Assembly: GCA_963823665.1 (NCBI GenBank)
Contig: CAWGMQ010000005.1
Coordinates: 1,888,001-1,952,000, forward strand
DNA length: 64,000 nt
Direction of reading: 5' to 3'
From: an uncultured Planctomycetota bacterium
Lineage (GTDB): Bacteria; Planctomycetota; Planctomycetia; Isosphaerales; Isosphaeraceae
The notes beneath the pieces were generated by a model. It was given only the letters and a program-made list of their open reading frames with translations. It ran no database searches and had not been told where the DNA came from. Both the position numbers and the translations under genes were made by a program. Position 1 is the stretch's first letter, and each line of letters starts with the position of its first letter. This document shows positions 21,144 to 40,371 of this stretch, piece after piece.

Positions 21144-22277
21144 GTGGGCGACGTGATCCATTTTTACAGCGTACACGCTGAATACGGCTGCTTCTCGAAC
21201 TTCTCGCGTCACCCGGTTCGGCTGAAGGGCAAGGTCTGGCCGACCAGTGAGCATTACTTCCAGGCGCAGAAGTTTGCCGGGATTCCTGACGAGGAAGAAG
21301 TTCGATTGGCGAAATCGCCCACGATCGCCGCACGGATGGGCCGCAGTCGCAAGCGGCCATTGCGCAAAGACTGGGAAGCCATGAAGGATTCGATCATGCA
21401 CGAGGTAGTGCTCGCGAAGTTCACGCAGCATGCTGACCTGCGGGCGATCCTGCTCGGAACCGGCGACTCGACGATTGTCGAGCACACCGAGAACGACCGC
21501 TACTGGGGCGATGGTGGTGACGGCAGCGGCAACAACCGGCTTGGTCAGATCCTCATGCGGGTGAGGGCCGAATTGCGGTCGATTCCCGCCACCGGTAAGC
21601 AAGTTGCTGGAAAACACCTGACGAACAGCTTCGCCGAGTGGCTGAAAACCACGTTCGCAACGCTCGTACGCCCGCTCATGCCGGATGACGGTGAACCGGA
21701 GACGGGTATTTCTGCCGTGGAGGCCCGGCTCAAATTGCGGCTGCCAGCCGTGCTACGGGAATATTACCTGCTGGCGGGAAGATTTGATCGATTCAACCGG
21801 GCACACAACGAACTCCGCCGGCCAGGGGACTGGACCGTGGAAGGCGGCAAGCTCGTGTTCCTCGAAGAGAACCAGTGTGTGGTTTTCTGGGGCGTGGAGG
21901 CGAGCACTCTGCCTGAAGACGACCCGCCCGTCCACCAGGCGGAGAACATTCGGGGGCGACCGGCCGAATGGTTTCTGGAGCACGAACGGTGCTCCGAGTT
22001 CTTGATCGTCATGCTTCACTTGCAGGCTGTCTGGGGAGGCTATGAATTCCTCGGTGGTTCGGAAGTGAAGCAGGAAGCGGTGACGAAGTTCCTGAACGGG
22101 TGGACTGCGGCCGGGACCGTCAATCAGCTTTCGGCATTCAACCGGGAGGGTGCGGCGGCGTGCATAATTCAAGACAAGAACTCGTTGCAGTTGTACGTCG
22201 GAGGGCGGACTGAACGCGAATTCGAGTTCATCAGGGCAGCACTTGAGGAGGTAGGCGTCGAGCTCGAGCACTGTTGA
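21144..22277 (+). CDS. NADAR (YbiA-like) domain fused to an SMI1/KNR4 (SUKH)-like domain
   Basis: FSNF..PTSEHYFQAQKF..AKFTQH..DRYWGDGGDGSGNNRLGQILMRVR, then ISAVEARLKLRLPAVLREYY..LVFLEENQ..DDPPV. Confidence 0.85.
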   Translation: MGDVIHFYSVHAEYGCFSNFSRHPVRLKGKVWPTSEHYFQAQKFAGIPDEEEVRLAKSPTIAARMGRSRKRPLRKDWEAMKDSIMHEVVLAKFTQHADLRAILLGTGDSTIVEHTENDRYWGDGGDGSGNNRLGQILMRVRAELRSIPATGKQVAGKHLTNSFAEWLKTTFATLVRPLMPDDGEPETGISAVEARLKLRLPAVLREYYLLAGRFDRFNRAHNELRRPGDWTVEGGKLVFLEENQCVVFWGVEASTLPEDDPPVHQAENIRGRPAEWFLEHERCSEFLIVMLHLQAVWGGYEFLGGSEVKQEAVTKFLNGWTAAGTVNQLSAFNREGAAACIIQDKNSLQLYVGGRTEREFEFIRAALEEVGVELEHC

Positions 22278-22289
22278 GACTGCAAAGGG

Positions 22290-22322
22290 CAAGCCCCCGG
22301 CGACTGAGCCACCGGGGGCTTG
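22290..22322. terminator. GC-rich hairpin between convergent genes
   Basis: CAAGCCCCCGG-N11-CCGGGGGCTTG, a perfect 11-bp inverted repeat. Confidence 0.7.
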
Positions 22323-22327
22323 TTGCG

Positions 22328-22603
22328 TCAATCGATCACTGCAGTCACGACACCCGAGCCGACCGTCTTGCCACCCTCGCGGATCACAATCCGGCTGCCA
22401 GTCTCCAGGGCGATCGGCTTGTCCAGGCTCACGTCCAGCGACGTGTGGTCGCCGGGCATCACCATCTCGACCCCCTCGGGCAGCGTCAATTCGCCGGTCA
22501 CGCTTGTCGTGCGGAAGCAGAACTGCGGCTTGTAGCCACTAAAGAAGGGCGTATGCCGACCGCCTTCGTCCTTGCCGAGCACGTAGACCTCACCACGGAA
22601 TCG
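22328..22603 (-). pseudogene. tuf: Isolated EF-Tu domain III remnant (divergent tuf fragment)
   Basis: [57 protein letters not shown]; no G-domain upstream. Confidence 0.88.
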
Positions 22604-22915
22604 AGTTGGGGGGCCACGAGGCCCAGGGGCGAGGCCATAACCACGGCGTCACCGTCCTTTCACGGTGACCGCCCTCCGAAATTGGATGACCTGGGCTAGA
22701 TTCGTCGTTCGTCGAGGAAACCTTTTGATGCTGGGCAATTCCGCGCCGGCGCCTGAGGAACTACCTCGAGACGAATCACGAAATCGGACACCTGGCTGCA
22801 CGAGGGGGTTCGGAGGGCGAACTTGACGGTGCGGGACGGCGTCAGGGTGGCAGCGGATTGCTGCGCGATCGTCGGCCGGGAGTTTCCGAATCTCTTCCAT
22901 GGCATGAGGCGGAAC

Positions 22916-23347
22916 ATGACGGACGCTGATATCGGTTCGCTCATTCGAGCCTTTGAGGACGGCTCTCTATCGAAATCAGAATGGACACACTCCAGGCACC
23001 TGGTCATGGCCCTCTGGTACTTGACGCGTCATGACAGGGATGAGGCAATCGGGCTGATCCGCGAGGGTATTCAGCGGTATAACGCGCGGCAGGGGAATCA
23101 CACCGGTTATCATGAAACAATCACCCTGGCCTGGGTTGCCGTGGTCGAGCGGTTCCTGGGCGCGAGAGACCTGAACGTGCCGGAGTCAGTGCTGGCCGAG
23201 GAGTTGTTGCGGCAATGCGGCGACAAGGATTACCTGCTGCGGTTTTACTCGAGGGAGCGGCTTTTCAGCGAAGAGGCACGGCACGGATGGGTGTCGCCCG
23301 ACCTGGGTGAAAGCTGCGTGAGAAGGCCCGTGTGGTCACGATGTTGA
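22916..23347 (+). CDS. Conserved hypothetical protein (WTH..HL / YHETIT / WVxPDL type); C-terminus probably altered by a deletion
   Basis: EWTHSRHL, GYHETITLAW, FYSRERLFSEEARHGWVSPDL. Confidence 0.7.
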   Translation: MTDADIGSLIRAFEDGSLSKSEWTHSRHLVMALWYLTRHDRDEAIGLIREGIQRYNARQGNHTGYHETITLAWVAVVERFLGARDLNVPESVLAEELLRQCGDKDYLLRFYSRERLFSEEARHGWVSPDLGESCVRRPVWSRC

Positions 23348-23640
23348 CCTCTGTTTGCACCGGAGCGCTACTGCTGGGCCGAGCGGGTCTGCTGGACGGC
23401 AAACGTGCGACGACGCATTGGCGGGCCGTGAATGAGATGCGGGGGTTGTTTCCGACCGTCAATGTGATTGACGATCAACACGTTGTCGAAGAAGGCGACG
23501 TGATCACGTCGGCAGGGATCTCGGCGGGCATCGATATGGCGCTCCGGGTAGTCGCCAGACATCATGGCGATGTGATTGCTCGGGCAACTGCCAGGTACAT
23601 GGAGTATCCGTTCCCCGAGGACAATCGGAGGAGAGTTTGA
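23316..23640 (+). pseudogene. C-terminal half of a DJ-1/PfpI family protein
   Basis: SVCTGALLLGRAGLLDGKRATTHW, ITSAGISAGIDMAL, ARYMEY; the N-terminal half is missing. Confidence 0.85.
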
Positions 23641-23758
23641 GATGGGTCGGCGGGGAGCGGGGGCTCAATGCGTCAGGCTAAAGCCTGACCTACTCAATTC
23701 TGTATAATCGACCTTGAGTAGTGAGCTGTGCTTCTGGAACATCCAGTAAGGAGACGCC

Positions 23759-24769
23759 ATGCCTTCCCAAGGTCCATCTCCCGCGTTGTTTTTCGACACG
23801 ATCAGCGCCTATCACCGTACCGAGGCTCTGCGCGCGGCTATCGAGCTCGATTTGTTTTCGCTGGTGGCCGCAGGGCGTCACACGGCAGGCGAGCTAGCCG
23901 AGGCGTGCCAGGCCGCGCCGCGAGGCGTTCGCATACTGGCAGACCATCTCGCTATTCTCGGCTTTCTCACCAAGCACGCTGACCGCTATGAACTCACGGA
24001 CGACACCAAGGTATTTCTCGATCGCAAGTCGCCGGCCTATCTGGGCGGTGCGGTCAGCTTCATGCTCGCGCCCGGAATGAGGGAGTGCTTTCAGCATTTG
24101 ACGGCGGCCGTGAAGCGAGGCGGGACGGCCGTTTCGGACGAGGGAACGGTCTCGCACGACAACCCGATCTGGGTTGAGTTCGCTCGCGCCATGGCACCGC
24201 TGATGCGGATGCCGGCCCAGTTGCTCGCGGGCCTGGTTGGCGGAGATGCTTCGCAACCGCTGCGCGTGCTCGATGTTGCCGCGGGGCACGGGTTGTTTGG
24301 GATCACGATCGCGGAGCGCTATCGGCAAGCTAAAGTCACTGCGCTCGATTGGGCGAACGTGCTGGCGGTTGCGGAGGAGAATGCTCGCCGCGCGGGTGTT
24401 GCCGAGCGGTATGCGTTGCTTCCGGGTAGTGCGTTCGAGGTTGATTGGGGCGGCCCGTACGACGTCGTGCTGCTGACGAACTTTCTGCATCACTTTGACG
24501 TGCCGACCTGCGAGCAATTGGCGGCCAGAGCGTATGCAGCTCTCGGGCCGGGTGGCCGGGCCCTTACGTTGGATTTCATTCCCGAACCCGATCGCATCAC
24601 GCCGGCAGCGACGGCCACTTTCGCACTCGTGATGCTGGCGACGACGGCTCACGGGGATGCTTATACGTTTGCGGAATATCAGGGAATTTTTGCGCGGGCT
24701 GGGTTCGGCCGCATTGAGTTCCATGCCCTGCCGCCGACAACGCAGCAGGCGGTGGTGTCGTACAAATAA
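23759..24769 (+). CDS. SAM-dependent O-methyltransferase with N-terminal dimerisation domain
   Basis: AAIELDLF; VLDVAAGHGLFG; NFLHHFD; GDAYTFAEY; RBS AAGGAG. Confidence 0.9.
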   Translation: MPSQGPSPALFFDTISAYHRTEALRAAIELDLFSLVAAGRHTAGELAEACQAAPRGVRILADHLAILGFLTKHADRYELTDDTKVFLDRKSPAYLGGAVSFMLAPGMRECFQHLTAAVKRGGTAVSDEGTVSHDNPIWVEFARAMAPLMRMPAQLLAGLVGGDASQPLRVLDVAAGHGLFGITIAERYRQAKVTALDWANVLAVAEENARRAGVAERYALLPGSAFEVDWGGPYDVVLLTNFLHHFDVPTCEQLAARAYAALGPGGRALTLDFIPEPDRITPAATATFALVMLATTAHGDAYTFAEYQGIFARAGFGRIEFHALPPTTQQAVVSYK

Positions 24770-24780
24770 GAAGTGACCCT

Positions 24781-25140
24781 TCAAACAATTCGAAGCAGAC
24801 GACAGGTGTCTTCGTAACTGGCTTCGAGATCCAAAGGGATGGAGAGCTTTTCCGTCAGCCAGAGAGGCAGGGTTGGCAGTGGTCTGCCAAGTTTCAAGGG
24901 TTTCCGCCAGAAGTCGAAGACGGTTTTTGTTTCCGTTCGCCGCGTCCGGCAGCAGGCTGCATCAAACGTGCCGATATCGACTTCGAAATAACTTCCCAGG
25001 TGGACCCGGGGGGCGGCCTGGTATCCTTCTGGCAGCACCGGCGCCAGCTTTTGAATGATCATCATGGGCCAGCCGCCGTGGACCTCTTCCCAGGAGTGCC
25101 GCTTGCTCACGGGAGGTCGAAAATGAACGCGAAATGGCAT
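24781..25140 (-). pseudogene. DUF4058-type protein with central deletion
   Basis: N-term MPFRVHFRPPVSKRHSWEEVHGGWP..FEVDIGTFD joined directly to C-term LPTLPLWL..PLDLEASYEDTC; only 119 aa. Confidence 0.7.
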
Positions 25141-25146
25141 CGAGGG

Positions 25147-25191
25147 CCCCCAGGCGTTGCCCTGGGCTAACTTGTTGCGCCCCTTCGGGGC
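25147..25191. repeat. REP-like double palindrome
   Basis: CCCAGG-CGTTGC-CCTGGG followed by GCCCC-TTC-GGGGC. Confidence 0.65.
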
Positions 25192-25429
25192 CGGGAGTCA
25201 GGGATTCGGCGAGCGCCTCATGAGAGTAGACCAGAATCGGTTAGCCGATTCCAGCCAGTTACACGCGCGAGAGAACCGGATCACCCACAATCTACTCGAC
25301 TTACGAAAAATCGGAATTTTCTTGTGTGCGCGTCGATCCGCGGAATTATCATTCGACTGAGAAGTGGTGTGAGACGAACGGTCTCAACGGACGTATCAAC
25401 GCGATGTCTCTCTTTGAGGGCAAACAAAA

Positions 25430-25969
25430 ATGGTGCGGCGATCCTTCGTAGTGTGCGGGCTGATGCTTACCCTTTCGCTCGCGGGCTTTGGAGCCGATAA
25501 GCCCGAGGGCAAGCTGCCGGCGCCGCGTACTAACGCGGGCCTGGAGAAGGTGAAAAAGTTGGCAGGGACGTGGCTGAATACGGACAAGGATGGGAAGGCG
25601 ACCGACGAGGTTGCGTCGATCTTCAAGGTGACGGCGGGCGGGAGCGCGGTGCACGAGACAATCGCCCCTGGCCAGGCTCACGAAATGGTCTCGGTCTACA
25701 CCGTCGACGGGCCCGACTTGATCATGACGCATTATTGCGTGCTGGGGAACCAGCCTCGGCTGAAGGCCGACTCGAATTCCTCGGAAGGCCAGATTGCGTT
25801 CCAGTTCGCCGGTGGCACGAACCTCGATCCGAAGAAAGACAAACACATGCACGACCTGACCCTCATCTTCGTGGACGACGACCACATCGAGGTGAAGGGC
25901 ACCGGCTGGGAAAACGGCGCGCCGTCAAAGGATATGTGCTGTGGGCTCAAGCTGGTTCGGAAGAAATAG
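25430..25969 (+). CDS. Secreted conserved hypothetical protein (THYC..GNQP motif)
   Basis: Signal peptide; HEMVSVY, LIMTHYCVLGNQPRL, HMHDL. Confidence 0.8.
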   Translation: MVRRSFVVCGLMLTLSLAGFGADKPEGKLPAPRTNAGLEKVKKLAGTWLNTDKDGKATDEVASIFKVTAGGSAVHETIAPGQAHEMVSVYTVDGPDLIMTHYCVLGNQPRLKADSNSSEGQIAFQFAGGTNLDPKKDKHMHDLTLIFVDDDHIEVKGTGWENGAPSKDMCCGLKLVRKK

Positions 25970-26187
25970 AAAGGACACGTGCGCTCACGGCGGCGTGTTC
26001 TTCGAGCCGCTCGGCGTCGGGTACCCCCCGGATTCCGAGCGGCTTTATTTCGTGCCGGACGGGATGCGCCTGGTGTCGCTTCTTTGACATCATCGGGCGG
26101 TCGTTGCCGCAGGATTGTAGTCGGCGACCGAGCTAGCTGGTGGCTGCCAGTTCGCAGCGCGTGGGATCTGCGTTCGGCCGGATCTAG

Positions 26188-26526
26188 CTAGCCCGTTCGA
26201 TGAGCGCCACGGGACTTCACGACGCGCTTGGCGATCGTGCCGGGGGAACTGTTTTGACCGAGCGGCTGCCAGGAGAATCGAAAAAGGGCTCGCCCGGTGG
26301 CGGGATCGGTTGCTTCGAGATCAATGACCTCGGTCAGAGAGACGCAGACCGAATCCCCGCTCGGAACATAACAGGTATCTTCGCCAGCATCTGAATGAGC
26401 GTGGGCGAATACGATGGAATCGCCAGCGGCGAGTGTTTTGGCAGCAGGCATCGGAAGGACGGCATCGCAGACTCGCCCTCTCTCCACGTCCGATATCCTT
26501 TGTTCGCTAGCGGGGTAACTGTTCAC
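26188..26526 (-). CDS. Hypothetical protein downstream of the RRM gene
   Basis: 112-aa ORF, co-oriented, 62 nt after the RRM stop. Confidence 0.5.
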   Translation of the reverse strand: MNSYPASEQRISDVERGRVCDAVLPMPAAKTLAAGDSIVFAHAHSDAGEDTCYVPSGDSVCVSLTEVIDLEATDPATGRALFRFSWQPLGQNSSPGTIAKRVVKSRGAHRTG

Positions 26527-26588
26527 ATGAGGCTCCGACCAATAGATGTTGGTTAGATCCGCTTGAAACCTGCCGAGATGGTGTACGA

Positions 26589-26882
26589 TCAGTTCTCTCG
26601 ACCGTTACCGCCAGCCAAGCTGATCGTGCGAGCTACCCTTGGCTTGGCAACGCTAACCACCAGCCGCCGCCCGTCGTGCTCTTGGTCGTTGAGTCCCTGA
26701 ATCGCAGCCTCGGCCTCTGCGTCGGTGTCCATCTCGACAAAACCGAACCCCTTGCTACGCCCCATATCACGGTCCTGGATGACCTGGGCGCTCTGCACGG
26801 TGCCGAAGGGTACGAACCAATTCGCCAAATCGACATGCGTCACGGAATAGGTCAAATTTCCGACATACAGCTTTTTCGCCAC
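26589..26882 (-). CDS. RRM-domain RNA-binding protein
   Basis: RNP2 KLYVGNL and RNP1 RSKGFGFVEM; GTG start. Confidence 0.95.
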   Translation of the reverse strand: MAKKLYVGNLTYSVTHVDLANWFVPFGTVQSAQVIQDRDMGRSKGFGFVEMDTDAEAEAAIQGLNDQEHDGRRLVVSVAKPRVARTISLAGGNGREN

Positions 26883-27189
26883 GAGATGATCTTTCTGGCA
26901 AAGACTTTCGACCCGCTCGATTCTTTCTGGGCCGATGAGAAAGGGGCACACAATGGAGCCCATGAGGCGGGAGAGACGAGAAGGGGAAGCAGAAAGCGAT
27001 TCGATGAGAACCCAATATGCTAACTCAATCGTCAAACCAACCAATTGAAGTATAACTAATTTGAATACAGAAAGAAATGACAAAACTTGAAACCTTCTCG
27101 GCTTGACCGAATGGGACGTGCTGTTCTTGATTTTTCTGGTCGCCGAATGGGATTCGATCAGCAGGACCATCCCGGCCCGCCCTTCAGGA

Positions 27190-27978
27190 TCAATTCCTCC
27201 GTCGCCGTCCAAGAGTCAGGACGCCCAGCGCTCCCGCACCGAGCAGCATCAAGCTCGACGGCTCGGGCACGGACTGGGTTGTCACCCCGATCGTCAAGAA
27301 GTCGATCGCGTAACCGTCGCCTCCGTCACCTCCTTCATCGATGCTCAAGGTCATGACGTTGGTGTCCAGAAGGAGTGATGGGCTGATCCCGATCGTGAAG
27401 AACTGGACGAGCGGGCCGCTCTCGTTAAGGCTTTCGAGCTCTGCCGTCAGCGCGACGTCCGTCGTGCCGTTAATCGTTGCGATGAACGGTTGCCCGAACA
27501 CCGGAAACTGGAAATCGTCCGCCGCGATTCCGAGAGTGAGCGTGGTCAAATGCTGGCCGGAAGGCACTAAACTGGAGTAGTCCATGGTCATTACATCCGG
27601 ACCGTTGATTCGTTCGGGGGATACAGAGTATCCATCGTGAAAGGCCGTCTGGACGGATCCCACGTAGATCTGGTCGGTTCCCGGGAAATCACCGGGGCCG
27701 GGAGTGAATGGGTAGCTATGGGGAGTGATTAACGAGGCCATGGTGACGACGTCCGGCGCCAGACCCACGAGGGTGGCGCCTGCCTTTGGATCGCTCGCAT
27801 AGGTGCCGGTCCCCAGAACATTCTCGTTGCCGTACTCAATCGCTCCACCTCCCGCGTGGACAGGCGAGCTAAAGGCCAGAGTGCAGATCATCGCAGCCAA
27901 GAGGCTGGCCAATGAGACACTCCACCGATTCGTTCGATACACGTGGCGATGTGCTGGAACCGCGAAGATACGAGTCAT
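27190..27978 (-). CDS. PEP-CTERM sorting-domain surface protein
   Basis: Signal peptide (..PVHA); C-term VPEPSSLMLLGAGALGVLTLGRRRRN. Confidence 0.9.
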   Translation of the reverse strand: MTRIFAVPAHRHVYRTNRWSVSLASLLAAMICTLAFSSPVHAGGGAIEYGNENVLGTGTYASDPKAGATLVGLAPDVVTMASLITPHSYPFTPGPGDFPGTDQIYVGSVQTAFHDGYSVSPERINGPDVMTMDYSSLVPSGQHLTTLTLGIAADDFQFPVFGQPFIATINGTTDVALTAELESLNESGPLVQFFTIGISPSLLLDTNVMTLSIDEGGDGGDGYAIDFLTIGVTTQSVPEPSSLMLLGAGALGVLTLGRRRRN

Positions 27979-28216
27979 TGTGATTATGCCACCTTTCTTG
28001 TCGCCGACGCCCGGTTCCCGTTTGAACCGGCGGCACCTTCGTGCGGTCTTCTATTACGGTGGACCCAGGAGTGCTTCCCAGTTGCGACCTGGTGAAGACC
28101 TCATTTGCCACCAGGTGTTGGTGCTGCGGTGCCGGCGCGGTCCTGTGAGTTGTCTAACAGCGAGCGCCTGGTCCAGTTGCAATCTTTCAACTTTCCAAAA
28201 GGAAACGAGATCATTC

Positions 28217-29071
28217 ATGAACCATTTCATCGTTCGTCTTGCGCCCGGCGTGAGCATGTTGGCCGTCATGGTCGTTGCATCGGCCTCGCTTGTAGGGGCC
28301 GATGAAAACGCGAAACCGCGGGTTTCGGTTCCCGAAGCAGACGGCAAGGCTGCGCAAATTCTGAGGGCTGCGCACGAGTATGTGGCTGCTCGCTCCGTTG
28401 AGATCGAGCAAACCGCCGAACAGACTGCCCGTGTTCTGGTCGATGGTAAGCCGTTGGGCGCGGAGCAAGCGACTAAACAAACCTCTCGTATCGAGGTTGA
28501 CGCTGACAAAGGGTTCGTGCGAATGACGATGCGCGATCAAGGCGGGGCGGATGTTGTTGTGATTCGCAAAGGCAATCGCATCGCAATGAAGATTGGCTCG
28601 GATCCGTGGACCGCGCCAAAGGGCAGTTATGCCCGGATTAGCGATCAACTGGGAAACCCGTTCGCTTGCCCTTTTCCAGGGCCCGGAGAGAAGCATTCGC
28701 CGAAGTGGACGATCGTGGGTGATGAGCATGTCGACGGCCAGGAGATGGTCGTAATCAAGACTGTCGGCGACAGTGCGAATGAGTATGCCCAGGCGCGGAT
28801 GCGCGACGGAATCGTGTCGATATTCCCTGATGCCTCTTCCCGCCCGACTGTTGAAGTCATGACCTACGAGTCACGGCATTGGATCGGCAAGGCTGACGAT
28901 CGACGGATGCGGGTGGAGCAAACTTCTCATCACACCCTGACGATGCCGGGAGCCGCCAAGACCGTGATCGACGTTGTGGGAAAAACGACGGCGATCTATC
29001 GTCGATACAACAGAATTGACATCGATGTGCCAGAGGGCGCGCGCGGCATCCTTTCTCCGGAAGACAAATGA
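28217..29071 (+). CDS. Secreted hypothetical protein (beta-rich; LolA/LppX-like fold possible)
   Basis: AAGGA RBS; signal peptide MNHFIVRLAPGVSMLAVMVVASASLVGA. The fold is a guess. Confidence 0.65.
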   Translation: MNHFIVRLAPGVSMLAVMVVASASLVGADENAKPRVSVPEADGKAAQILRAAHEYVAARSVEIEQTAEQTARVLVDGKPLGAEQATKQTSRIEVDADKGFVRMTMRDQGGADVVVIRKGNRIAMKIGSDPWTAPKGSYARISDQLGNPFACPFPGPGEKHSPKWTIVGDEHVDGQEMVVIKTVGDSANEYAQARMRDGIVSIFPDASSRPTVEVMTYESRHWIGKADDRRMRVEQTSHHTLTMPGAAKTVIDVVGKTTAIYRRYNRIDIDVPEGARGILSPEDK

Positions 29072-29132
29072 GTGTGAACCTCGCCGGTGTGTTCCTGGGA
29101 ACAAATCATGCTATCCGAACGATGAGGTAAAG

Positions 29133-29236
29133 TTGAAGCTCAGCGACGTCATTCCGTGGGGACTGTCTTTCGATACTCGGAGCGATTGAGCTTTGAGTTT
29201 CATCTGGCGTCGATTGAGGAGTTGCTGCGGGTGGCG
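29133..29236 (+). pseudogene. SAM-methyltransferase copy A: N-terminus fused to a C-terminal piece
   Basis: GAGGT RBS and TTG KLSDVIPWGLSFD, then a jump to YSERLSFEFHLASIEELLRVA. Confidence 0.75.
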
Positions 29237-29310
29237 AGGTTGGCAAGCGGCTAGACTCCGACCGGGGCAAGTTTGTGGTGCTGGCGCTGCCGGCGAAGTG
29301 CCAAAAGTCA

Positions 29311-29425
29311 AAGAAAAAAGCCGACCTGGGGGAACCTTTCGCAAAGTTCTCCCAGGTCGGCTTACTCTTTAACGAACCTGCCGGCAGGGCCGGGTTGTCC
29401 TTCGGCCAGTCATCCGACCATTTTC
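29311..29425 (-). ncRNA. Candidate structured leader/sRNA ending in an intrinsic terminator
   Basis: 5' GGUCGG, internal CCGGC/GCCGG hairpin, then AAGCCGACCUGGG..CCCAGGUCGGCUU plus a U-tract; promoter-like boxes directly upstream. Confidence 0.6.
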
Positions 29426-29432
29426 GCCGCTG

Positions 29433-29461
29433 GTTGTACGCTTTCGGGTCGGGGAATGCAA
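29433..29461 (-). promoter_or_regulatory. Sigma70-like promoter for the candidate RNA
   Basis: TTGCAT-17 nt-TACAAC on the minus strand. Confidence 0.5.
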
Positions 29462-29524
29462 GCACTGGCCAGCTCACCGTTTACATTCATAAGTCGAAAG
29501 ATATTTTTATTACATAAATAATTA

Positions 29525-29553
29525 TTGACATTTTGTTCGCTTTCGCCTATAGT
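29525..29553 (+). promoter_or_regulatory. Near-consensus sigma70 promoter upstream of hsp20
   Basis: TTGACA-17 nt-TATAGT, preceded by an AT-rich UP-like tract. Confidence 0.75.
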
Positions 29554-29683
29554 CGGATTGTAGCCAGAGAGACAAGAGCGATGAAAAGCCGGTCCGGCAA
29601 TCCACTGCACGGCTGGCACTATTTGATCCTGCGTGCCCGAGGTCATCGCCAAACGGCACGCTCAATGACGAAGGAGACTTGAG

Positions 29684-30136
29684 ATGACACTCACAAGATG
29701 GGACCCGTCCAACGAGATGGTCAGCCTGCGGGATGCTGTGAACTTCCTGTTCCAGGAGAGCTTCGTGCAACCGACGAGCGGCGCACGGTCAGAACGAGGA
29801 GCCACCACGGTTGCGCTTCCCTTGGATGTTACAGAGGGGGAGAACGATTTCGTGGTGACCGCCTCGCTGCCTGGTATCAAACCGGAAGATGTGCAGACGA
29901 CAGTCCTCGGCGATACCGTGATGATCAAGGCCGAGAGCAAGGCCAATGGAGAGCAGAAGGGCCAGAACTGGCTCATGCGAGAGCGCCGTTCGGGCTCATT
30001 CCAGCGTTCGGTAAACCTGGGCACGCCCATCAATGCCGACAAAGCGACGCACCACTTCGAGCATGGTGTCCTGACGTTGACATTGCCGAAGTCGGAGCAG
30101 GCTCGTCCCAGGCAGATCAAGCTCAATGCCCGCTAG
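29684..30136 (+). CDS. Hsp20 / alpha-crystallin small heat-shock protein
   Basis: RWDP..LRDAVNFLF; LPLDV.E; LPGIKPEDV; RERRSGSFQRS; HGVLTLTLPK; RBS AAGGAG. Confidence 0.95.
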   Translation: MTLTRWDPSNEMVSLRDAVNFLFQESFVQPTSGARSERGATTVALPLDVTEGENDFVVTASLPGIKPEDVQTTVLGDTVMIKAESKANGEQKGQNWLMRERRSGSFQRSVNLGTPINADKATHHFEHGVLTLTLPKSEQARPRQIKLNAR

Positions 30137-30161
30137 GTTCGAGTCAACTCAGATGCACATC

Positions 30162-30189
30162 GATGGGCATGGACCGGTCCATGCCCATC
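30162..30189. terminator. Perfect 28-bp palindrome after hsp20
   Basis: GATGGGCATGGACCGGTCCATGCCCATC; a second CGATGGG..CCCATCG hairpin at 30207-30234. Confidence 0.6.
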
Positions 30190-30347
30190 CGAATTAGCTC
30201 AAGACCCGATGGGCATTCCTTGCTTAACCCATCGTTCCCACCACCCCGCCAGCCAGCCGTGCAGGCAAACAATCTTCACGCCATATCCCATTTGACTCGC
30301 TCTTCCCGCCTTATCTCGAAGCCGGGCCGGACCTCGGTATCAAGATT

Positions 30348-30751
30348 CGCCTCATGTTCGGGTTATCGGAGAGGGACCTGACGTGATTTCGCAGGTTCGG
30401 CTCAACCTGAGCGGATTTGTGTGGGATTACTTCTGCGATCCCGATAATCCCGGGCGGGCCCGGCTGGCTGCGATGAACGTCTTCTTATCTGATCTTGAGG
30501 TGGGAAAAGCTGAGGGGTGCTATGTTGTTGGTTCTCTGCCGAGCCTGCCGTTTCGGGACGGGCAGTTTGATCTGGCTTTGTGCTCGCACTTGCTGTTTCT
30601 TTACTCGGATCGATTGACTTTGAGTTTCATCTGGCGTCGATTGAGGAGTTGCTGCGGGTGGCGGTGGAGGTTCGGGTTTTCCCTTTGCTGACCTTGGAGC
30701 AGGAGCACTCGCCGTATGTTGAGCCTTTGGTGGGCTGCTTGGCTGAGAAGG
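30348..30751 (+). pseudogene. SAM-methyltransferase copy B (internal deletion, 1-bp frameshift, 3' truncated)
   Basis: RLMFGLSERDLT | VISQVRLNLSGFVWDYF..ARLAAM..LPSLPFRDGQFDLALCSHLLFLYSD..EELLRVAVEVRVFPLL. Confidence 0.8.
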
Positions 30752-30778
30752 AAATCGCGATCGTTTTGAGTGTGCGAG

Positions 30779-31081
30779 TTAAGGGATCTGAGCGTTCTCT
30801 TCGTCGCGTATCTCCAGATAGCGTTTCATGTGATTCTCAACGTCCAGTTGGTGGCTTGCCATGTCACAAACAACATCGAAGGGCTCCGCATGGAAAAAGA
30901 GTTCAAACTCCTCCAGAGGTTGATTCATGAGCTTTTTCTGGAGTTCGGCCAACTTATTCAATGCGGATGCTGAGCATTTGGGATGGAACTCGCGAATGCA
31001 ATGCTCGACAACCGCCCAATATTCTTGCTGCGCGTCATCAGGGACGATGTGTGAAGGTCTTAGTATATTGGCTTTACTCAT
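30779..31081 (-). CDS. Hypothetical 100-aa helical protein, AT-rich (antitoxin-like partner?)
   Basis: YWAVVEHCIREFH..FFHAEPFDVVCDMA; start overlaps the upstream stub. Confidence 0.65.
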   Translation of the reverse strand: MSKANILRPSHIVPDDAQQEYWAVVEHCIREFHPKCSASALNKLAELQKKLMNQPLEEFELFFHAEPFDVVCDMASHQLDVENHMKRYLEIRDEENAQIP

Positions 31082-31142
31082 ATGTGCCGTGGTATAGAAT
31101 AATCTGTTGATCTATCCAAGGCAGTATTCCAGGCAGCGGCAA
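31074..31142 (-). pseudogene. 22-codon stub resembling the N-terminus of a DUF3990/ADP-ribosyltransferase-like protein
   Basis: GGAAGGGG RBS and TTG PLPGILPWIDQQIILYHGTYE*; LYHGT resembles the ART first-strand motif. Confidence 0.45.
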
Positions 31143-31469
31143 ATTGATGCCCCTTCCGAGGAAGAGGAGGTGAGACCAGCAAGAGCCATCTCTAATCATA
31201 GCCGATCGCTTCCGCGGAGCAACGCCGAGTACACGGAGCACCAGTGCGGTCTGCCCGATTGGACTTCTTGCGCAACATGGCGGGAACGAAGGCTTCCAGC
31301 GAAGCGGATGCCCTTCACCGGCTGATGAAGTGCGGTCCCGGTAAGGCTTCGTTTCCTCCATCGCCGCTCCGATAGCCGCCGGTCGGAGCGACTCAGTTGC
31401 CGGGCGGAAATTATAGCCACTGAAGATCAGCACCTTCCGCAGGAGGCACTATAGGACTGGCCTCACAGA

Positions 31470-31814
31470 TTGAGATGGGAAAGGCTGAGGGGCGTTATAT
31501 CGTCGGTTCGCTGCCGAGCCTGCCGTTCTTGGGCGGACAGTTTGATCTGGCTCTGTGCTCGCACTTGTTCTTTCCTTACTCGGATCGATTGAGCTTTGAG
31601 TTTCATCTGGCGTCGATTGAGGAGTTGCTGCGGGTGGCGGCGGAGGTTCGGGTTCTTGACCTTGGAGCGAGAACACTCGCCGCATGTTGAGCCTTTGGTG
31701 AGCTGGTTGGGGGAGAAGGGGTGGAGGGCTGAGATTTGTGGGGTGGCGTATGAATTTCAGCGAGGGGGTGATCGGATGCTTTGGATTGGGAGGCGTGATT
31801 TTGCAGGCGGTTAG
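31470..31814 (+). pseudogene. SAM-methyltransferase copy C (3' part, small deletion near 31655)
   Basis: GKAEGRYIVGSLPSLPF..FDLALCSH..EELLRVAAEVRV / LTLEREHSPHVEP..YEFQRGGDRMLWI. Confidence 0.8.
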
Positions 31815-32178
31815 TTTCGTCAATGAGGCTGAGGCCGAAGCGGTACGATCTTGCCCGCGCCCGCGTGGTTCACGGCTTCGCAGGAAGCGTAGCGAAGTCA
31901 TGAAATGAGATTACGAGCCGGATGCCTCTTTGACAGGCAAGTTTCGATCTGGGGGGGCTCGGGTGCACGGCCACCTAACTCTACCCGGCGCAGGGAAGAG
32001 GTCTAGAATGGCCGGAACGAACACGAGGTGCGCCTTTCTGCGCGGATGATGCGGTTGCATCATCACGACGGTCCCGGGTCCTTTCCCACGGATGCGACGC
32101 GAATCTGCTATTATAGGGCCGAGGCCTCGCTTTCTTCGGGCGCGGCGAGTTGAAGGGACAGCCGAGGGAAGGAAAATC

Positions 32179-32511
32179 ATGAGCATAGACCTTAGCGAGC
32201 AGATCATGATTGGTACCGGCGTCCAGGAGTTCTTGGATCATCATGACCTTGAGGCCGATTTCCGGACCATTTGCGAGCTGGTCAAGGATTGTTTCCCAGA
32301 TGCACTGCGCCTCCAGGCTGCAGTACGGGAGGACGTGGACGAGCCCGGCCGATTCCGCATTCTTTTGAGTGCTACGCTCCCAGCGGAATATCCTCTTGAG
32401 CAGCACTTGGTGCAGAATCGGCGCTATCATGAGCGCCTCGTGCAAACGATCCCCTTGTCCCACTGTCCCTACTTCGCCCTGGTGACTGAGTTCCTGACGG
32501 GGCCACTATGA
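32179..32511 (+). CDS. Small acidic protein upstream of a HEPN gene (putative antitoxin)
   Basis: RBS GGAAGGA; 110 aa; stop overlaps the HEPN start (ATGA). Confidence 0.65.
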   Translation: MSIDLSEQIMIGTGVQEFLDHHDLEADFRTICELVKDCFPDALRLQAAVREDVDEPGRFRILLSATLPAEYPLEQHLVQNRRYHERLVQTIPLSHCPYFALVTEFLTGPL

Positions 32512-32736
32512 AGTGGAGCGAATTCCGGGACACGGCAGATCGCTTGGCGCAGGGCTCAACGGAAGGCGACTGGCGTTCGGCTACCAGTCGCAGTTACTGC
32601 CTTGTCCGCAGTCCTCGAGGTAGATGCGGTGGTGGCGAACTTCCAGGCTCTGCTGGCCGCGGCTTCGACCGTATCGATCGTTGATGGGGCGCGGCGGCAT
32701 CTCCAAGCCATTGGCCGAATACCAAGAACACCGTAG
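32508..32736 (+). pseudogene. HEPN-domain toxin-like gene with central deletion
   Basis: MKWSEFRDTADRLAQGSTEGDWRSATSRSY (HEPN-type RSAxSRxYY helix) joined out of frame to ..VANFQALL..IVDGARRHLQAIGRIPRTP*; no RxxxxY/H motif left. Confidence 0.7.
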
Positions 32737-32788
32737 GGATCAACCGACGGCAACCCATGGAAATGATCGTCTAAAACGGACCCACCCA

Positions 32789-33165
32789 GGGGGGCGAGCC
32801 CGGCTCGGTGCGATGAACTTCTTCTTATCGGACTTTGAGAGGGGAAAAGCTGAGGGCGCTATGTCGCGGCCTCGCTGCCGAGGCTTCCGTTTCGGGACGG
32901 GCAGTTTGATCTGGCTCTGTGCTCGCACTTGCTGTTTCTGTACTCGGATCGATTGAGCTTTGAGTTTCATCTGGCGTTGATTGAGGAGTTGCTGCGAGTG
33001 GCGGCGGAGGTTCGGGGTTTTCCTCGGTTGACCTTGGAGCGGGAGCACTCGCCGTATGTTGAGGCTTTGATGAACTGGTGGGCTGAGAAGGGGGTGGAGG
33101 AGCGAGATTTGTGGGGTGGCGTATGAGTTTCAGCGAGGGGGTGATCGGATGCTTTGGGTTGGGAG
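32789..33165 (+). pseudogene. SAM-methyltransferase copy D (3' part, frameshifted)
   Basis: GRARLGAMNFFLSDFERGKAEG / ..FDLALCSHLLFLYSDRLSFEFHLALIEELLRVAAEVR.. / YEFQRGGDRML. Confidence 0.8.
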
Positions 33166-33232
33166 GGATGATCATCCAAACCGCTTTGTTACTTCCGCGG
33201 AGAGGTAATCGATCGCCTCCAGGACCGGTAAT

Positions 33233-33580
33233 ATGGATCTTGCCGAAGCCGCGGATGCCATTCGTGAAAAGCTTATCGAGCATCGGAACTCGCGAGTCGA
33301 AAACCTCTGGTCCGCGATCCTGAAGCAGATCAGGAAGCAGAATTCGTTTGATGGGCATTACGTAGATCCGATTTTGGAGGTCATCCGATCGTTCTTGAGT
33401 CAGCTAGACGACCCAACGACGATCGGTCTCTGGAAGACGACGGAGGCGGGGCTCGCCGACGATGCTGAGGATGACTGCCTGATTTCCGACTGCATCCGGA
33501 TTGACTTGGAGATGGAGCTGTTGCAGGCAGTCACGGATTTGGCGTGGAAGGAAGCCAAGGAGGGTACGCGAGGGGGTTGA
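33233..33580 (+). CDS. Hypothetical acidic helical protein
   Basis: 115-aa ATG ORF with protein-like composition. Confidence 0.6.
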   Translation: MDLAEAADAIREKLIEHRNSRVENLWSAILKQIRKQNSFDGHYVDPILEVIRSFLSQLDDPTTIGLWKTTEAGLADDAEDDCLISDCIRIDLEMELLQAVTDLAWKEAKEGTRGG

Positions 33581-33591
33581 GCCGGTTGCTG

Positions 33592-34032
33592 CTAGAGAGA
33601 CGTATCCGCATTCGGTGCAGCGCCTTGTTCGGGTCTCTTCGCTCGCTTGTATACGCCCAATGCATAGGGCCAGTTCAAGGTTAGAACCGGGGTCTCCCAC
33701 GTCTCCTGGTCGCTGGGTTTGCCATTGTGCCAGATGACGAATTCACCATCACACGTGGGACATCGAAAGCGGACGCGAGGCCAGTCAGCGTCGCTGAAGT
33801 GAAATCCGTCCTGCAAGCGGTTGCAACATGGGCACCGCGGAAGAATCAGCGGGTAGAGCTTCAATCCTCTGTAGAACGGGTACACCAAGGCAAGGTATAT
33901 GCAGAGCCCGCTCAGTGGCACTGCAACCGGACGCAGGTACCAGGGTAGCTGCCGAGACAGCGACAGCCCGATCACCACGCCGATAAGACCGCAGGCGACC
34001 GCGAAGAACAAGTCAATGAGGTTGAATCTCAT
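33592..34032 (-). CDS. Two-TM protein with a zinc-ribbon-like C-terminus
   Basis: Two hydrophobic helices, then CPCC...CPTC; ATGA overlap with the sulfotransferase stop. Confidence 0.65.
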   Translation of the reverse strand: MRFNLIDLFFAVACGLIGVVIGLSLSRQLPWYLRPVAVPLSGLCIYLALVYPFYRGLKLYPLILPRCPCCNRLQDGFHFSDADWPRVRFRCPTCDGEFVIWHNGKPSDQETWETPVLTLNWPYALGVYKRAKRPEQGAAPNADTSL

Positions 34033-35144
34033 TGCTCGTATCCCCATTCGTCGAAGCTTCGGCCCCAGTCGTTGGCGATGCGGCGGCGTAATGGCTCGGG
34101 TAGTTCGTCAAAGCGGTTCTTGCGATAGCCGGCGATCGAGGCGAGGTAGACTTCCAGCCGGGGGCGGAGCTCGTCGAAGCCCGCCAAGCCGAGGGACTCG
34201 TAGATTGACGCGAGCACAGCAACTGGCTCACGAGCCAGATCCTCGAAGGCGACGTCGCAGAGCCGCCCATTGGGGATCAGGCCCCGCTCTGCGAAGTAAG
34301 CATCGTGCATCCTGGTGTACTGTGAAATCATCTGATCATCCCCATCCAGCAACGGGCCTTCCCGGAGGTGATAGAGGGGCTGCGCCGCACGGATCGTGTG
34401 CTTCTCCGAGCGAAATACATCATAGGGGTTTCGGTGGATGTTGACGAAGTGCGCGTCGGGGAACAGCCCGAGGAGCAGCCGGATGCGGGCGGTGTGCAGG
34501 GGTGACTTGAGCACCAGTCGGCGATTGTACCTTACCGTGAGCTTTTTCAGGAACGTCGTCAGGGCGAGCCTCCAGCGCGTGACCTCGTCGTCGGATACGT
34601 CCTGAAACGTCATGTAGCGGTCGTAGTCGACCGAGTCTCCGGGAAAGTTCCAAGCCATGTAGGGGGAGAGGCCCGTCATCGCGCACAAGGCAAACTCATC
34701 CTCCATCGGCAAATTAGCACCCTGGGCCATCTCGTCTTGGCAGCGCCGCCGGGCGACGAGCCTGTCGACGAGGGGGGCTGACCACCGCTCGGTGCCCAGG
34801 AAGGTGTGGGGATTGAAAACCTGGAACAAGGTCGGTGCGCCGAACTGCGGGTCGAGCGCAAGCAGATTGTGCAGATGCGTTGTCCCGCTACGGAAGTGCC
34901 CGAGGATGAACAAAGGGGCCTCGACACGAGCAGCCTCGATCTGCCGTCCGAACCGCGCTCGCTCGATCCGGGCGTTAACGGAGTTGGAGGCGCTCGCAGC
35001 GGTCTGGACAAGCGCGCGAGGCAGGTGCTTCAAGTCGACTGCGAAACCGTGTCGACGCAGTACGGACCACCAGTCGCTCAAGGTCATGCCTTGAAGCGGA
35101 TGGAAAATGTGGTGTGCGGCGAAATCTTTGAATTTCTCTTTCAT
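34029..35144 (-). CDS. Sulfotransferase family protein
   Basis: PLFILGHFRSGTTHLHNLL (5'-PSB), LVLKSPLHTAR, IHRNPYDVFRS, FEDL. Confidence 0.92.
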   Translation of the reverse strand: MKEKFKDFAAHHIFHPLQGMTLSDWWSVLRRHGFAVDLKHLPRALVQTAASASNSVNARIERARFGRQIEAARVEAPLFILGHFRSGTTHLHNLLALDPQFGAPTLFQVFNPHTFLGTERWSAPLVDRLVARRRCQDEMAQGANLPMEDEFALCAMTGLSPYMAWNFPGDSVDYDRYMTFQDVSDDEVTRWRLALTTFLKKLTVRYNRRLVLKSPLHTARIRLLLGLFPDAHFVNIHRNPYDVFRSEKHTIRAAQPLYHLREGPLLDGDDQMISQYTRMHDAYFAERGLIPNGRLCDVAFEDLAREPVAVLASIYESLGLAGFDELRPRLEVYLASIAGYRKNRFDELPEPLRRRIANDWGRSFDEWGYEQ

Positions 35145-35369
35145 GGGGGAATTGGCCGGCGAATTGGCCGTTGGCGACTTCTGTGGCGAAAGCGGCAGTA
35201 CGCTTGGCGCAATGTCTATGATAACGCCCAAGCCGATCCCGATGACGTAATGGGTGGGAGGCATACCCAGCGAAATTGCCGTGGTGCTCGGACATGTGTA
35301 GCATATTACGAAGCAGCGAGCACTGTCTCGATGGCGTTGCCGAATCCCGATCAGGCGAGGTGGTGATAC

Positions 35370-36639: not shown

Positions 36640-37514
36640 TCAAACTTGGATTGGGTGGAGGACTGGCCCGTCCAGAACGTTGTTCGGTGGGGGGAAGAAT
36701 ACTCCACGTGCGCGCGCATACACAATGAATTCTTTCCATTAAACGATCTGATCGCTGGAACCCGGAATCTTTCTGGAAATTTCCCAATCGACCGTCCGTC
36801 GAATCGGCAAAATCGTCGCATATTGTACATGCGGGAGTGCGCTGCGCGGTGGCGTTTTGCTGCCCGCGGCCGCTGGCTCACGGCACCACTCGCGTGTCCT
36901 ATGGGGCACGGGCGCGAGGTTCTCTAGTTGCGGCTTACAAGGCCAAAAGGCGGAATGCATGAGAATAACAACAACAACCAGAACAGAGGCGCGAGGGGCG
37001 GCGGGGGCAGCATGGGATTCCTGTTCAGCGGCGGGTACCGGCTGCCCTAAAAGCGGGCGTGTTTGGTCGCCAATTTACACTAATGTACGGATGCTAAATA
37101 GCCCCCGGGAAATTGCCACTTATTGCCATTTTTGCGAGCCGGTGACTGGCCGTCCGGGGCGTGGCATGTTATTCGGAACTCCAAGCAGCATAAATGGATC
37201 TGAAATGGGGCTTGCGATTTTGGTCGATCGAAAAGTCTCTTGGCAATTGTCAGGCAGAATTGCCATTTCGGAATTCACCCGTTGTTCACTATATCGAGCC
37301 GACGTCGATTCCTGGGATTTCCGCGGCCGTTTCTGTCTATCCGGGCGGCTTGCGCCCGATCTCGAGTTGGAAGCACGATCTTCGCCCTCGCGGAACTCGA
37401 AGACCGGTCGGCGGGAGCTTCTGGTGAAGGGAGGTCGCAGCTTCCCAGGCGAGCGGCGGAGAGCGTATTGTTGAGGCTCGTTTGCAACATTCACTGACGC
37501 GAGTGGGCTGAACT

Positions 37515-40062: not shown

Positions 40063-40190
40063 AGTGCCAGACCCACTGAAAAACCTGGCGGCCGCGTTGG
40101 GTCGACTTCGGCGGCGATTGCTCCTAAGATTAGGTGAATGCATGCGCCTCTGGAGTGTGGAGTTTGGGAATGGGTCTGGGACAACCTTCT

Positions 40191-40371
40191 GAAGTTGACG
40201 GTAAGCGCGCCGCAGAGCGGCATAAAGAGCGTTCCCACGCGGAGCGTGGGAACGAGGAGGCGACGCGCGGTCGCTGGGTGCATGAGAGCAAGGAAGTTGA
40301 CGGCAAGCGCGCCGCAGAGTGGTATAAAGAGCGTTCTCATGTGGAGCGTGGGAACGAGGAGGCGACGCGCG
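40191..40371 (+). repeat. Two direct copies (79 bp, 102-bp period) of a REP-like element
   Basis: GAAGTTGACGG.AAGCGCGCCGCAGAG.GG.ATAAAGAGCGTTCCCACGCGGAGCGTGGGAACGAGGAGGCGACGCGCG at 40191 and 40293; internal GTTCCCACGC/GCGTGGGAAC hairpin. Confidence 0.85.

Follow-up and report, generated by a model that had tools for sequence, protein, structure and literature searches.

The window, a 64,000-nt stretch of an uncultured Planctomycetota genome, contains an 8-kb variable island (26046–34037, no strand assigned) that is absent at the syntenic site of a congener, where the same flanking genes enclose ~1.2 kb of different sequence. Within this island, a SAM-methyltransferase gene with an intact length of 236 codons is present as four broken direct copies, with unrelated cargo in between. 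Mapped by codon on intact homologues of 230–236 aa, copies A–D are ~88% alike, with matching stretches of 250–340 nt at 86–88% identity, which excludes chance. A 71-nt core repeat lies in the same orientation at 29174, 30602, 31577, and 32941, and codons 150–170 form the sole stretch common to all four copies, where they are nearly invariant.

Copy A (29133–29236, + strand) carries codons 1–14 joined by a deletion to codons 150–170, and is the only copy with a start codon, a TTG behind GAGG. It lacks codons 15–149 and the gene end, so the head of the array is not intact. Copy B (30348–30751, +) joins codons 17–27 to 76–199 and is frameshifted by a 1-nt deletion inside the core. Copy C (31470–31799, +) spans codons ~114–226 with an 8-nt deletion near codon 175, and copy D (32792–33208, +) starts at codon 100 and keeps the gene's natural stop, at 33208. 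A +1 frameshift near 33093 in copy D is matched by a short-read contig; for another, at 32853, a short-read contig disagrees, and this frameshift may have arisen in assembly. The displaced fragments therefore start at different codons (17, ~114, and 100) and share no single fixed crossover point. Copy B also begins just where the deletion of copy A begins, which the displacement reading below does not explain. The original prediction, made from the letters alone, had described a near-identical core repeated four times in one orientation, broken copies with differing breakpoints, a ribosome-binding site and start in copy A only, and the next N-terminal segment in copy B. The coordinates are confirmed and the breakpoints differ when mapped on intact homologues; one correction is that copy D retains the natural 3′ end of the gene.

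Ahead of the first cargo lies a structured RNA-like motif (29310–29426, −), a dispersed element ending in a hairpin and U-run, which has 6 further copies in the genome and no credible Rfam match. A putative sigma70-like promoter (29525–29553, +; −35/−10 hexamers with a 17-nt spacer) precedes an intact hsp20 gene (29684–30136, +; PF00011), and a palindromic hairpin follows at 30162–30189. The second cargo comprises an intact gene (30779–31051, −), likely an antitoxin or immunity gene, and the stub of its DUF3990 (ART-like) partner (31074–31130, −), in which the first ~16 codons remain and the rest is deleted. An independent short-read contig spans this deletion, and in relatives the DUF3990 gene is whole and stands in the same order ahead of the same partner gene. 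In the third cargo, an intact antitoxin-like gene without a Pfam family (32179–32511, +) is followed by a HEPN-domain gene (32508–32733, +) that has a large internal deletion; its homologues match PF05168, and it too is whole in relatives, behind the same partner gene. A hypothetical gene (33233–33580, +) directly follows the stop of copy D. No cargo gene occurs twice in the array, and the second and third modules exist as intact two-gene units in other genomes.

Copy C is flanked by two further elements that the original inventory had overlooked. The piece abutting it (31345–31462, −) is domain 1 from the 5′ end of a group II intron, now decayed, and has 7 other matches in the genome, with homologous sites matching RF02003, while the 3′ remnant of a second intron (31837–31998, +) retains a reverse-transcriptase ORF end and domains 5/6; its homologous stretch in locus L150 has RF02005 upstream. 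The island pieces themselves reach no Rfam cut-off, and their 75–84% homologues lie in RF02003 matches or end a reverse-transcriptase ORF. On this homology, the pieces at 31345 and 31837 are best read as intron remnants, not intact introns. Whether gathering or E-value thresholds were applied, Rfam gave no credible match in the window, and NCBIfam gave no name for any cargo gene. Otherwise the predicted modules stand: hsp20 behind a structured RNA, an antitoxin-like gene with a HEPN stub, and an ART-like stub that is the 5′ end of a DUF3990 gene, although the gene beside it, described as AT-rich, is only mildly so (GC 0.52 over 30500–30999).

Upstream of codon 150, copies B, C, and D differ at 0.29–0.38 of silent sites versus 0.08–0.13 of replacement sites, and in this part their sequences look to have diverged like functional alleles. 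Silent differences number 5 of 125 site-copies from codon 150 on versus 18 of 101 upstream, with a change-point after codon 149 (permutation p = 0.02), counts that are small and segments that were picked after viewing the data. Intact homologues show no comparable drop. The core has 4 of 62 columns variable versus 41 of 188 outside it (Fisher p = 0.007; scan-corrected p = 0.04–0.09 for windows with 1–4 variable sites). Over the triple overlap, the silent fraction of 18/40 is not significantly above the 0.32 expected from neutral decay (p = 0.09) and also fits allelic divergence (expected 0.54–0.56, p = 0.26–0.39). The copies share a strong G+T skew, which alone could lower silent differences.

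Surveys of 120 family genomes and 400 class genomes found the methyltransferase gene in 5 and 26 of them, respectively, one copy in each; an apparent second copy in G393 proved to be two matches to a single frameshifted gene. Outside this genome, 94 loci (some of them represented twice, 35 being 5 kb or longer, none conspecific) showed neither a second copy nor an array unit joined to an intact gene. No donor was found in which the methyltransferase is linked to one of the three cargo modules, nor was an empty site holding a single intact gene. One homologue (L011) terminates at codon 170, as copy A does. As to where an intact gene might survive, none was found in this genome (92% complete), and relatives carry the gene singly. 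The earlier suggestion that the gene is itself a capturing repeat unit is thus not general for this gene (0 of 94 loci), and the process seems to be a property of the genome, not of the methyltransferase.

Similar sites exist elsewhere in the same genome. Across 1.19 Mb surveyed, five further sites show a gene and a partial second copy of it together with a small module, the modules being MNT-HEPN, Phd, Xre-RES, Uma2, and one unnamed ORF. The survey gave 24 repeat pairs, 7 of which were tested for dN/dS, the other 17 being dropped by eye as resolvase pairs, tandem paralogues, simple repeats, intron or IS ends, or unidentified. At the five sites dN/dS is 0.11–0.30, and the sulfatase and GDSL remnants contain 0 stops or indels in 219 and 133 codons, respectively, next to an intact head gene. 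In the congener, the single sulfatase gene precedes a different TA-like pair, and it is as distant from both copies here as the remnant is from its neighbor. Three sites have the remnant downstream and two have it upstream, as expected if the anchor may lie on either side. A kinase pair (1 of the 7 tested) counts on the other side, its dN/dS of 0.84 resembling plain duplication.

We consider it somewhat better than an even chance that the array is a displacement stack that arose without an integrase, as additive homologous recombination recurred at this gene, and has since decayed. Donor DNA from related bacteria would bring a methyltransferase allele together with the neighboring module of that donor (hsp20, the DUF3990 pair, or the HEPN pair). 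The incoming DNA would recombine at the common gene on one side and be joined illegitimately on the other (homology-facilitated illegitimate recombination), or alternatively enter as a circle by a single crossover, as the rhs model has it. With every round, the previous allele would end up as a variable-length fragment next to the newly arrived cargo, older versions being pushed aside. The copies are direct tandem fragments with variable 5′ ends and non-homologous sequence in between, as in a displacement array, and their single orientation, variable ends, start in the first copy, and natural stop in the last favor such a stack; an intact full-length gene heading the array is lacking. Also in favor are the congener's lack of the island, the whole cargo pairs elsewhere, the allele-like divergence before codon 150, and the five sites of similar build. 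Under displacement alone, allelic divergence should extend along all of a fragment; the uniform 3′ half calls for something further, with conversion or copying of the resident end as candidates. Codons 150–170 probably acted as a common pairing tract or were evened out by later exchange between copies. All copies and both toxin-like genes are broken, and deletions, frameshifts, and visits by group II introns would have inactivated them after assembly of the stack, an order of events that we infer. ComEC is present in the genome; Ku was not found, and capture of cargo by NHEJ was dropped for this reason.

A local tandem duplication is rather unlikely, yet it deserves the most weight among the alternatives. 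The copies would have diverged, for a time under selection, and then decayed, with modules and introns inserting between them in what would be a neutral landing zone. Star-like divergence (12, 17, and 14 private changes of the copies), near-even variable sites by codon position (13/15/17), and the silent fraction noted above are in keeping with this, as are a single G+T-skewed ancestry common to all copies and intron remnants as independent insertions. TA systems are also described as clustering in permissive spots, often pseudogenised, in a passage of PMC13617665. Duplication leaves unexplained, however, why silent-rich divergence is confined to the 5′ part and why each gap holds one distinct module, and the gene is single in 26 of the 26 class genomes that have it. 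The five similar sites, with their intact-frame remnants, also speak against it, since an identical duplication with one decaying copy should give a dN/dS of ~0.5 by our estimate.

Accretion of tandem integrative elements is improbable; they would have used one constant att site around codon 149/150, each carrying part of the target gene, and later lost their integrases. The silent-site change-point does coincide with the start of the conserved core and with the junction in copy A, and tyrosine-recombinase-like genes occur elsewhere in the genome. The exchange points nevertheless differ, copies B and D being near-identical from ~codon 132, not 150, and the copies reach far to both sides of the core (35–130 codons upstream) with unlike ends. 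These variable ends disfavor a fixed att site or site-specific integration. No recombinase ORF was seen in the island, and no other genome examined shows an element in the methyltransferase gene. An integron-integrase-family search gave no match in the window, and none turned up among the island ORFs scanned, which bears out, for that family, the earlier remark that no integrase is visible. Att-site accretion is already largely disfavored. The predicted repeatedly used integration hotspot survives in part, in that the island is absent in the congener, the cargo pairs are intact elsewhere, and the copies look partly allelic, but its framing as an integron or integrative element is not supported, for lack of strict attC sites, of an IntI above cut-off, and of constant copy ends.

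That the assembly concatenated strain variants of a single locus is highly improbable. An independent short-read contig matches copy B over 259 nt with 0 differences, frameshift included, and the sequence of copy D is likewise matched, so that B- and D-specific sequences are both exact in one independent run. The copies are just ~88% alike, each with its own deletions, and the array lies within a 1.97-Mb contig whose flanks are syntenic with the congener. On the other side, the frameshift at 32853 is contradicted, and among the short-read pieces listed (30 of 46), none spans the boundary between a copy and its cargo with 31 nt to either side; the unit order is therefore that of the assembly. 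Gaps in contig coverage were given no weight.

A decayed integron cassette array (CALIN), with the methyltransferase as a cassette or attC stand-in, is barely credible: like one, the array strings together short, TA-rich cargo units, a half attC-like end stands behind the neighboring gene at 33592–34032, and an attC-like sequence was seen by eye after homologue L022 (1 of 35 inspected), but that half site does not fold (z +1.8) and sits on the other strand, a pattern search found 0 matches to strict attC (RYYYAAC...GTTRRRY) on both island strands, 0 of 18 genome matches pass the TIGR02249 integron-integrase cut-off (genome 92% complete), and the cargo lies on both strands with its own promoter. 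With a looser attC pattern, 4 homologue ends out of 35 were picked up; these were set aside.

The proposed displacement stack has close counterparts in known systems. For rhs, Jackson et al. 2009 (PMC2935791) proposed that arrays form through homologous recombination at a conserved core, and the C-terminal displacement arrays treated there likewise consist of one gene's fragments, of varying length and all in the same direction, with foreign sequence between and no integrase. They differ in being anchored on a polymorphic toxin rather than an ordinary enzyme gene, and in exchanging tips and immunity genes rather than whole unrelated modules; the methyltransferase array also lacks an intact head gene, and its core fragments are diverged whereas those of the E. 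coli rhs loci described in that source are identical. At Vibrio cholerae T6SS effector-immunity loci, one study describes sequential displacement by homology-facilitated illegitimate recombination (Kirchberger et al. 2017, PMC5361080). As portrayed in passages of that paper, additive capture through a homologous anchor moves older parts aside into a heterogeneous array in which orphan protective genes are retained and toxin genes lost, as here. In the T6SS case, the retained parts are immunity genes that belong to a single system and are clearly under selection, whereas here they are anchor-gene remnants and mixed stress/TA cargo with no evident selective gain. A further likeness is to restriction-modification insertions in Helicobacter pylori, which place selfish two-gene modules between long direct duplicates of host sequence. 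Nobusato et al. reportedly found in 2000 that such genes are inserted with long target duplication. Target duplicates of this kind should start identical, whereas the methyltransferase duplicates mostly resemble diverged functional alleles. A related 1577-bp case has one homologous and one non-homologous junction (passage in PMC4615327). The mechanism favored here is the one proposed for rhs and Vibrio T6SS, applied to an ordinary enzyme gene as the anchor and to an array now decayed. In the open literature searched, we found no account of stacks like this at ordinary planctomycete genes.

With no intact anchor gene and its toxin genes broken, the array is a dead relic; it testifies to a process but is neither a working system nor a tool. 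The locus now likely expresses only hsp20 and the orphan partner genes. More doubtful, though possible, is that TA and stress modules are taken up all over this genome with no integrase or transposase involved, DNA from congeners docking by additive recombination at any gene held in common and leaving allele-remnant scars. If so, five sites per 1.19 Mb would extrapolate to ~70 in 16.5 Mb, and the methyltransferase stack would be the extreme case, in which an unusually G+T-rich, recombination-prone 63-nt core outlived its gene as a reusable dock. Richness in G and T may favor RecA pairing. A passage in PMC5587095 deals with a TGG preference, and the papers cited there include some that dispute its genomic meaning; this idea was set aside as evidence. 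How TA modules enter chromosomes with no mobile element nearby is described as still unclear (passage in PMC13617665). Scars of gene, module, and allele remnant would provide a countable signature of an integrase-free route, applicable to any long-read genome collection, and such capture might help account for gene gain in the 16-Mb genomes of soil planctomycetes.

The four same-direction repeats claimed in the original prediction are present where it placed them, each carrying the near-identical ~63-bp core (starts at 29174, 30602, 31577 and 32941). When mapped on intact 230–236-aa homologues, of which 781 were found, copy A (29133..29236) fuses codons 1–14 of the SAM-methyltransferase gene to codons 150–170, copy B (30348..30751) fuses codons 17–27 to 76–199, copy C (31470..31799) spans codons ~114–226, and copy D (32792..33208) runs from codon 100 to the natural stop. 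Copies B, C and D share ~88% pairwise identity and 72–77% with the nearest intact DNA; the nearest named homologues are Isosphaeraceae and Gemmataceae records. The search for further copies that had been proposed, run with DNA and protein, places the gene only at the array (16.46-Mb genome, 92% complete; 23 of 79 candidates scored in the profile search).

Between the copies lie mixed cargo units. Unit 1 pairs an intact hsp20 gene, preceded by a consensus promoter, with a dispersed minus-strand structured RNA-like motif (~115 nt, 29310–29426) of two hairpins and a U-run end. Six further genomic copies (L127, L128, L129, L131, L132 and L134) and compensatory change at 12 of 40 predicted pairs accompany this motif, which matches no Rfam family and is a candidate small RNA or attenuator of a new kind; a −10-like hexamer precedes two copies. 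Unit 2 holds a DUF3990 gene cut to ~16 codons, its intact partner and what decay has left of a group II intron's 5′ end, while unit 3 holds the 3′ end of another such intron, a partner gene and a HEPN gene with an internal deletion. Each pair has a broken toxin-like gene beside an intact partner; the putative toxin and antitoxin roles are suggested by domain and gene order. Elsewhere in the genome, locus L149 (G000:C5:836000-856000) contains, within 7 kb, four group II intron 5′ ends (RF02003) that all point the same way and each adjoin a similar short motif, and also a 1481-bp segment duplicated at 99.6%.

The congener genome G001 matches 22000–26045 and 34038–35145 in the same order with only ~1.2 kb of other sequence between, so the array sits in an 8-kb variable island (26046..34037). 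The methyltransferase is a patchy accessory gene, present in 5 of 120 family and 26 of 400 class genomes and always single; no second copy occurred in a set of 94 loci from other genomes, with some drawn twice. Of the five family matches, two are missing their 3′ end and one is no more than a short piece. Several other features were seen nearby. A short minus-strand ORF (24781–25140), presumably of DUF4058 type with no Pfam match, resembles an internally deleted gene, of which G001 has two pieces with extra sequence between. A ~190-nt element (36690–36898) has dozens of 73–83% copies in the source genome and congener, where two REP-like 79-nt direct repeats (40160–40371; 102 nt apart, internal palindromes) also recur. 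RRM RNA-binding genes are numerous (26589–26891 in the window), several forming close pairs ~1 kb apart (G000 C11:710314-711608, C8:813807-815250, C7:158137-159358).

We lean towards reading the array as a displacement stack, in which older gene versions are shifted aside by repeated additive homologous recombination. Related incoming DNA would have paired at the methyltransferase and been added rather than exchanged, either through one homologous and one illegitimate junction (PMC5361080) or through a circle (PMC2935791); three such additions would have been followed by exchange within the core and then decay. What the sequences show is the anatomy of the array, its place in a variable island, the identity of the cargo, the way the copies diverge and the recurrence of the pattern; the donors, event order and entry route are inferred. 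Local duplication with later insertions is a possible but weaker account.

Of the 40 changes over the 76 codons common to B, C and D, 18 are silent, a fraction above that of neutral decay (0.32, p=0.09) and below that of intact homologues (0.54–0.56, p=0.26–0.39); it fits both, and the overall test therefore does not decide. Silent differences per site are 0.29–0.38 over codons 100–149 and 0–0.18 afterwards, with the best change-point after codon 149 (18 vs 5, permutation p=0.02). Replacement changes have no change-point (p=0.62), intact homologues show no silent-site drop, and variable columns number 4/62 in the core and 41/188 outside. We read the copies as apparently allelic 5′ parts joined to an evened-out 3′ part, from small counts and segments picked post hoc. 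Coding-strand G+T of the copies (0.68–0.70; homologues 0.50–0.54) falls in the top 0.1% of 23,535 overlapping windows, and this richness alone could depress silent variation.

Scanning 1.19 Mb of this genome gave 24 local pairs of direct repeats lying outside single ORFs, and five of the seven tested have a small module between a gene and a partial copy: sulfatase/MNT-HEPN (dN/dS 0.20), GDSL/unnamed small ORF (0.11), 2OG-dioxygenase/Phd pair (0.22), hypothetical/Xre-RES (0.25) and Cas6/Uma2 (0.30). These sites lie at L202 6164–9120, L180 1369–3903, L197 10551–12895, L169 13154–15380 and L214 5858–7674. The sixth pair, 7 kb apart, has a dN/dS of 0.09, and a kinase pair 0.84. Open frames persist over 219 (sulfatase) and 133 (GDSL) remnant codons at 82–87% identity. 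The congener's one sulfatase is about equally near both copies (43 vs 51 shared differences) and is followed by a different TA-like pair. These remnants appear to have been functional alleles until recently, a state accounted for by additive recombination and not by simple target duplication; an older functional paralogue, truncated later, is a possible alternative.

Site-specific accretion, in which units join at a fixed site, is improbable. Near-identity of B and D begins at ~codon 132 and C does not join until 150, so there is no single base at which the boundary is fixed. Two details are unaccounted for: copy B starts 7 nt past A's deletion point, and a homologue in another Isosphaeraceae record (L011 8001–8510) stops at codon 170, as copy A does. 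Beside this cut homologue lies a partial gene duplicate (4125–4298/8890–9061), presumably RNA 2′-phosphotransferase-like, so that this record shows scars similar to those of the array.

An assembly artefact is very unlikely. Among contigs from four soil runs of two studies, one run matches copy B exactly, frameshift included, and also holds D; an independent contig spans the DUF3990 deletion, and a soil-run contig contradicts the frameshift in D at 32853. Among the 30 listed pieces of 46, none bridges a copy-to-cargo junction with 31 nt each side, so unit order rests on the assembly, a 1.97-Mb contig with flanks syntenic with the congener. Least likely of all is an integron, with no integron integrase reaching cut-off in the genome and no strict attC pattern in the island. 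The minus-strand gene at 33592–34032, whose end resembles the left half of an attC site (33590–33630), is likely a domesticated integron cassette; its homologues in three family genomes have similar ends. Ku was not found in the genome; ComEC is present, a widespread gene (10 of 14 controls) and no proof of competence.

Literature searches brought up no account of such stacks in planctomycetes; rhs and T6SS loci are known examples of this kind of array. Unlike in those loci, the anchor here is an ordinary enzyme gene, the cargo mixes stress and TA modules, and the head gene does not survive. The methyltransferase locus is a relic, and its arrangement, again unlike rhs and T6SS, is repeated at several genes of one genome.
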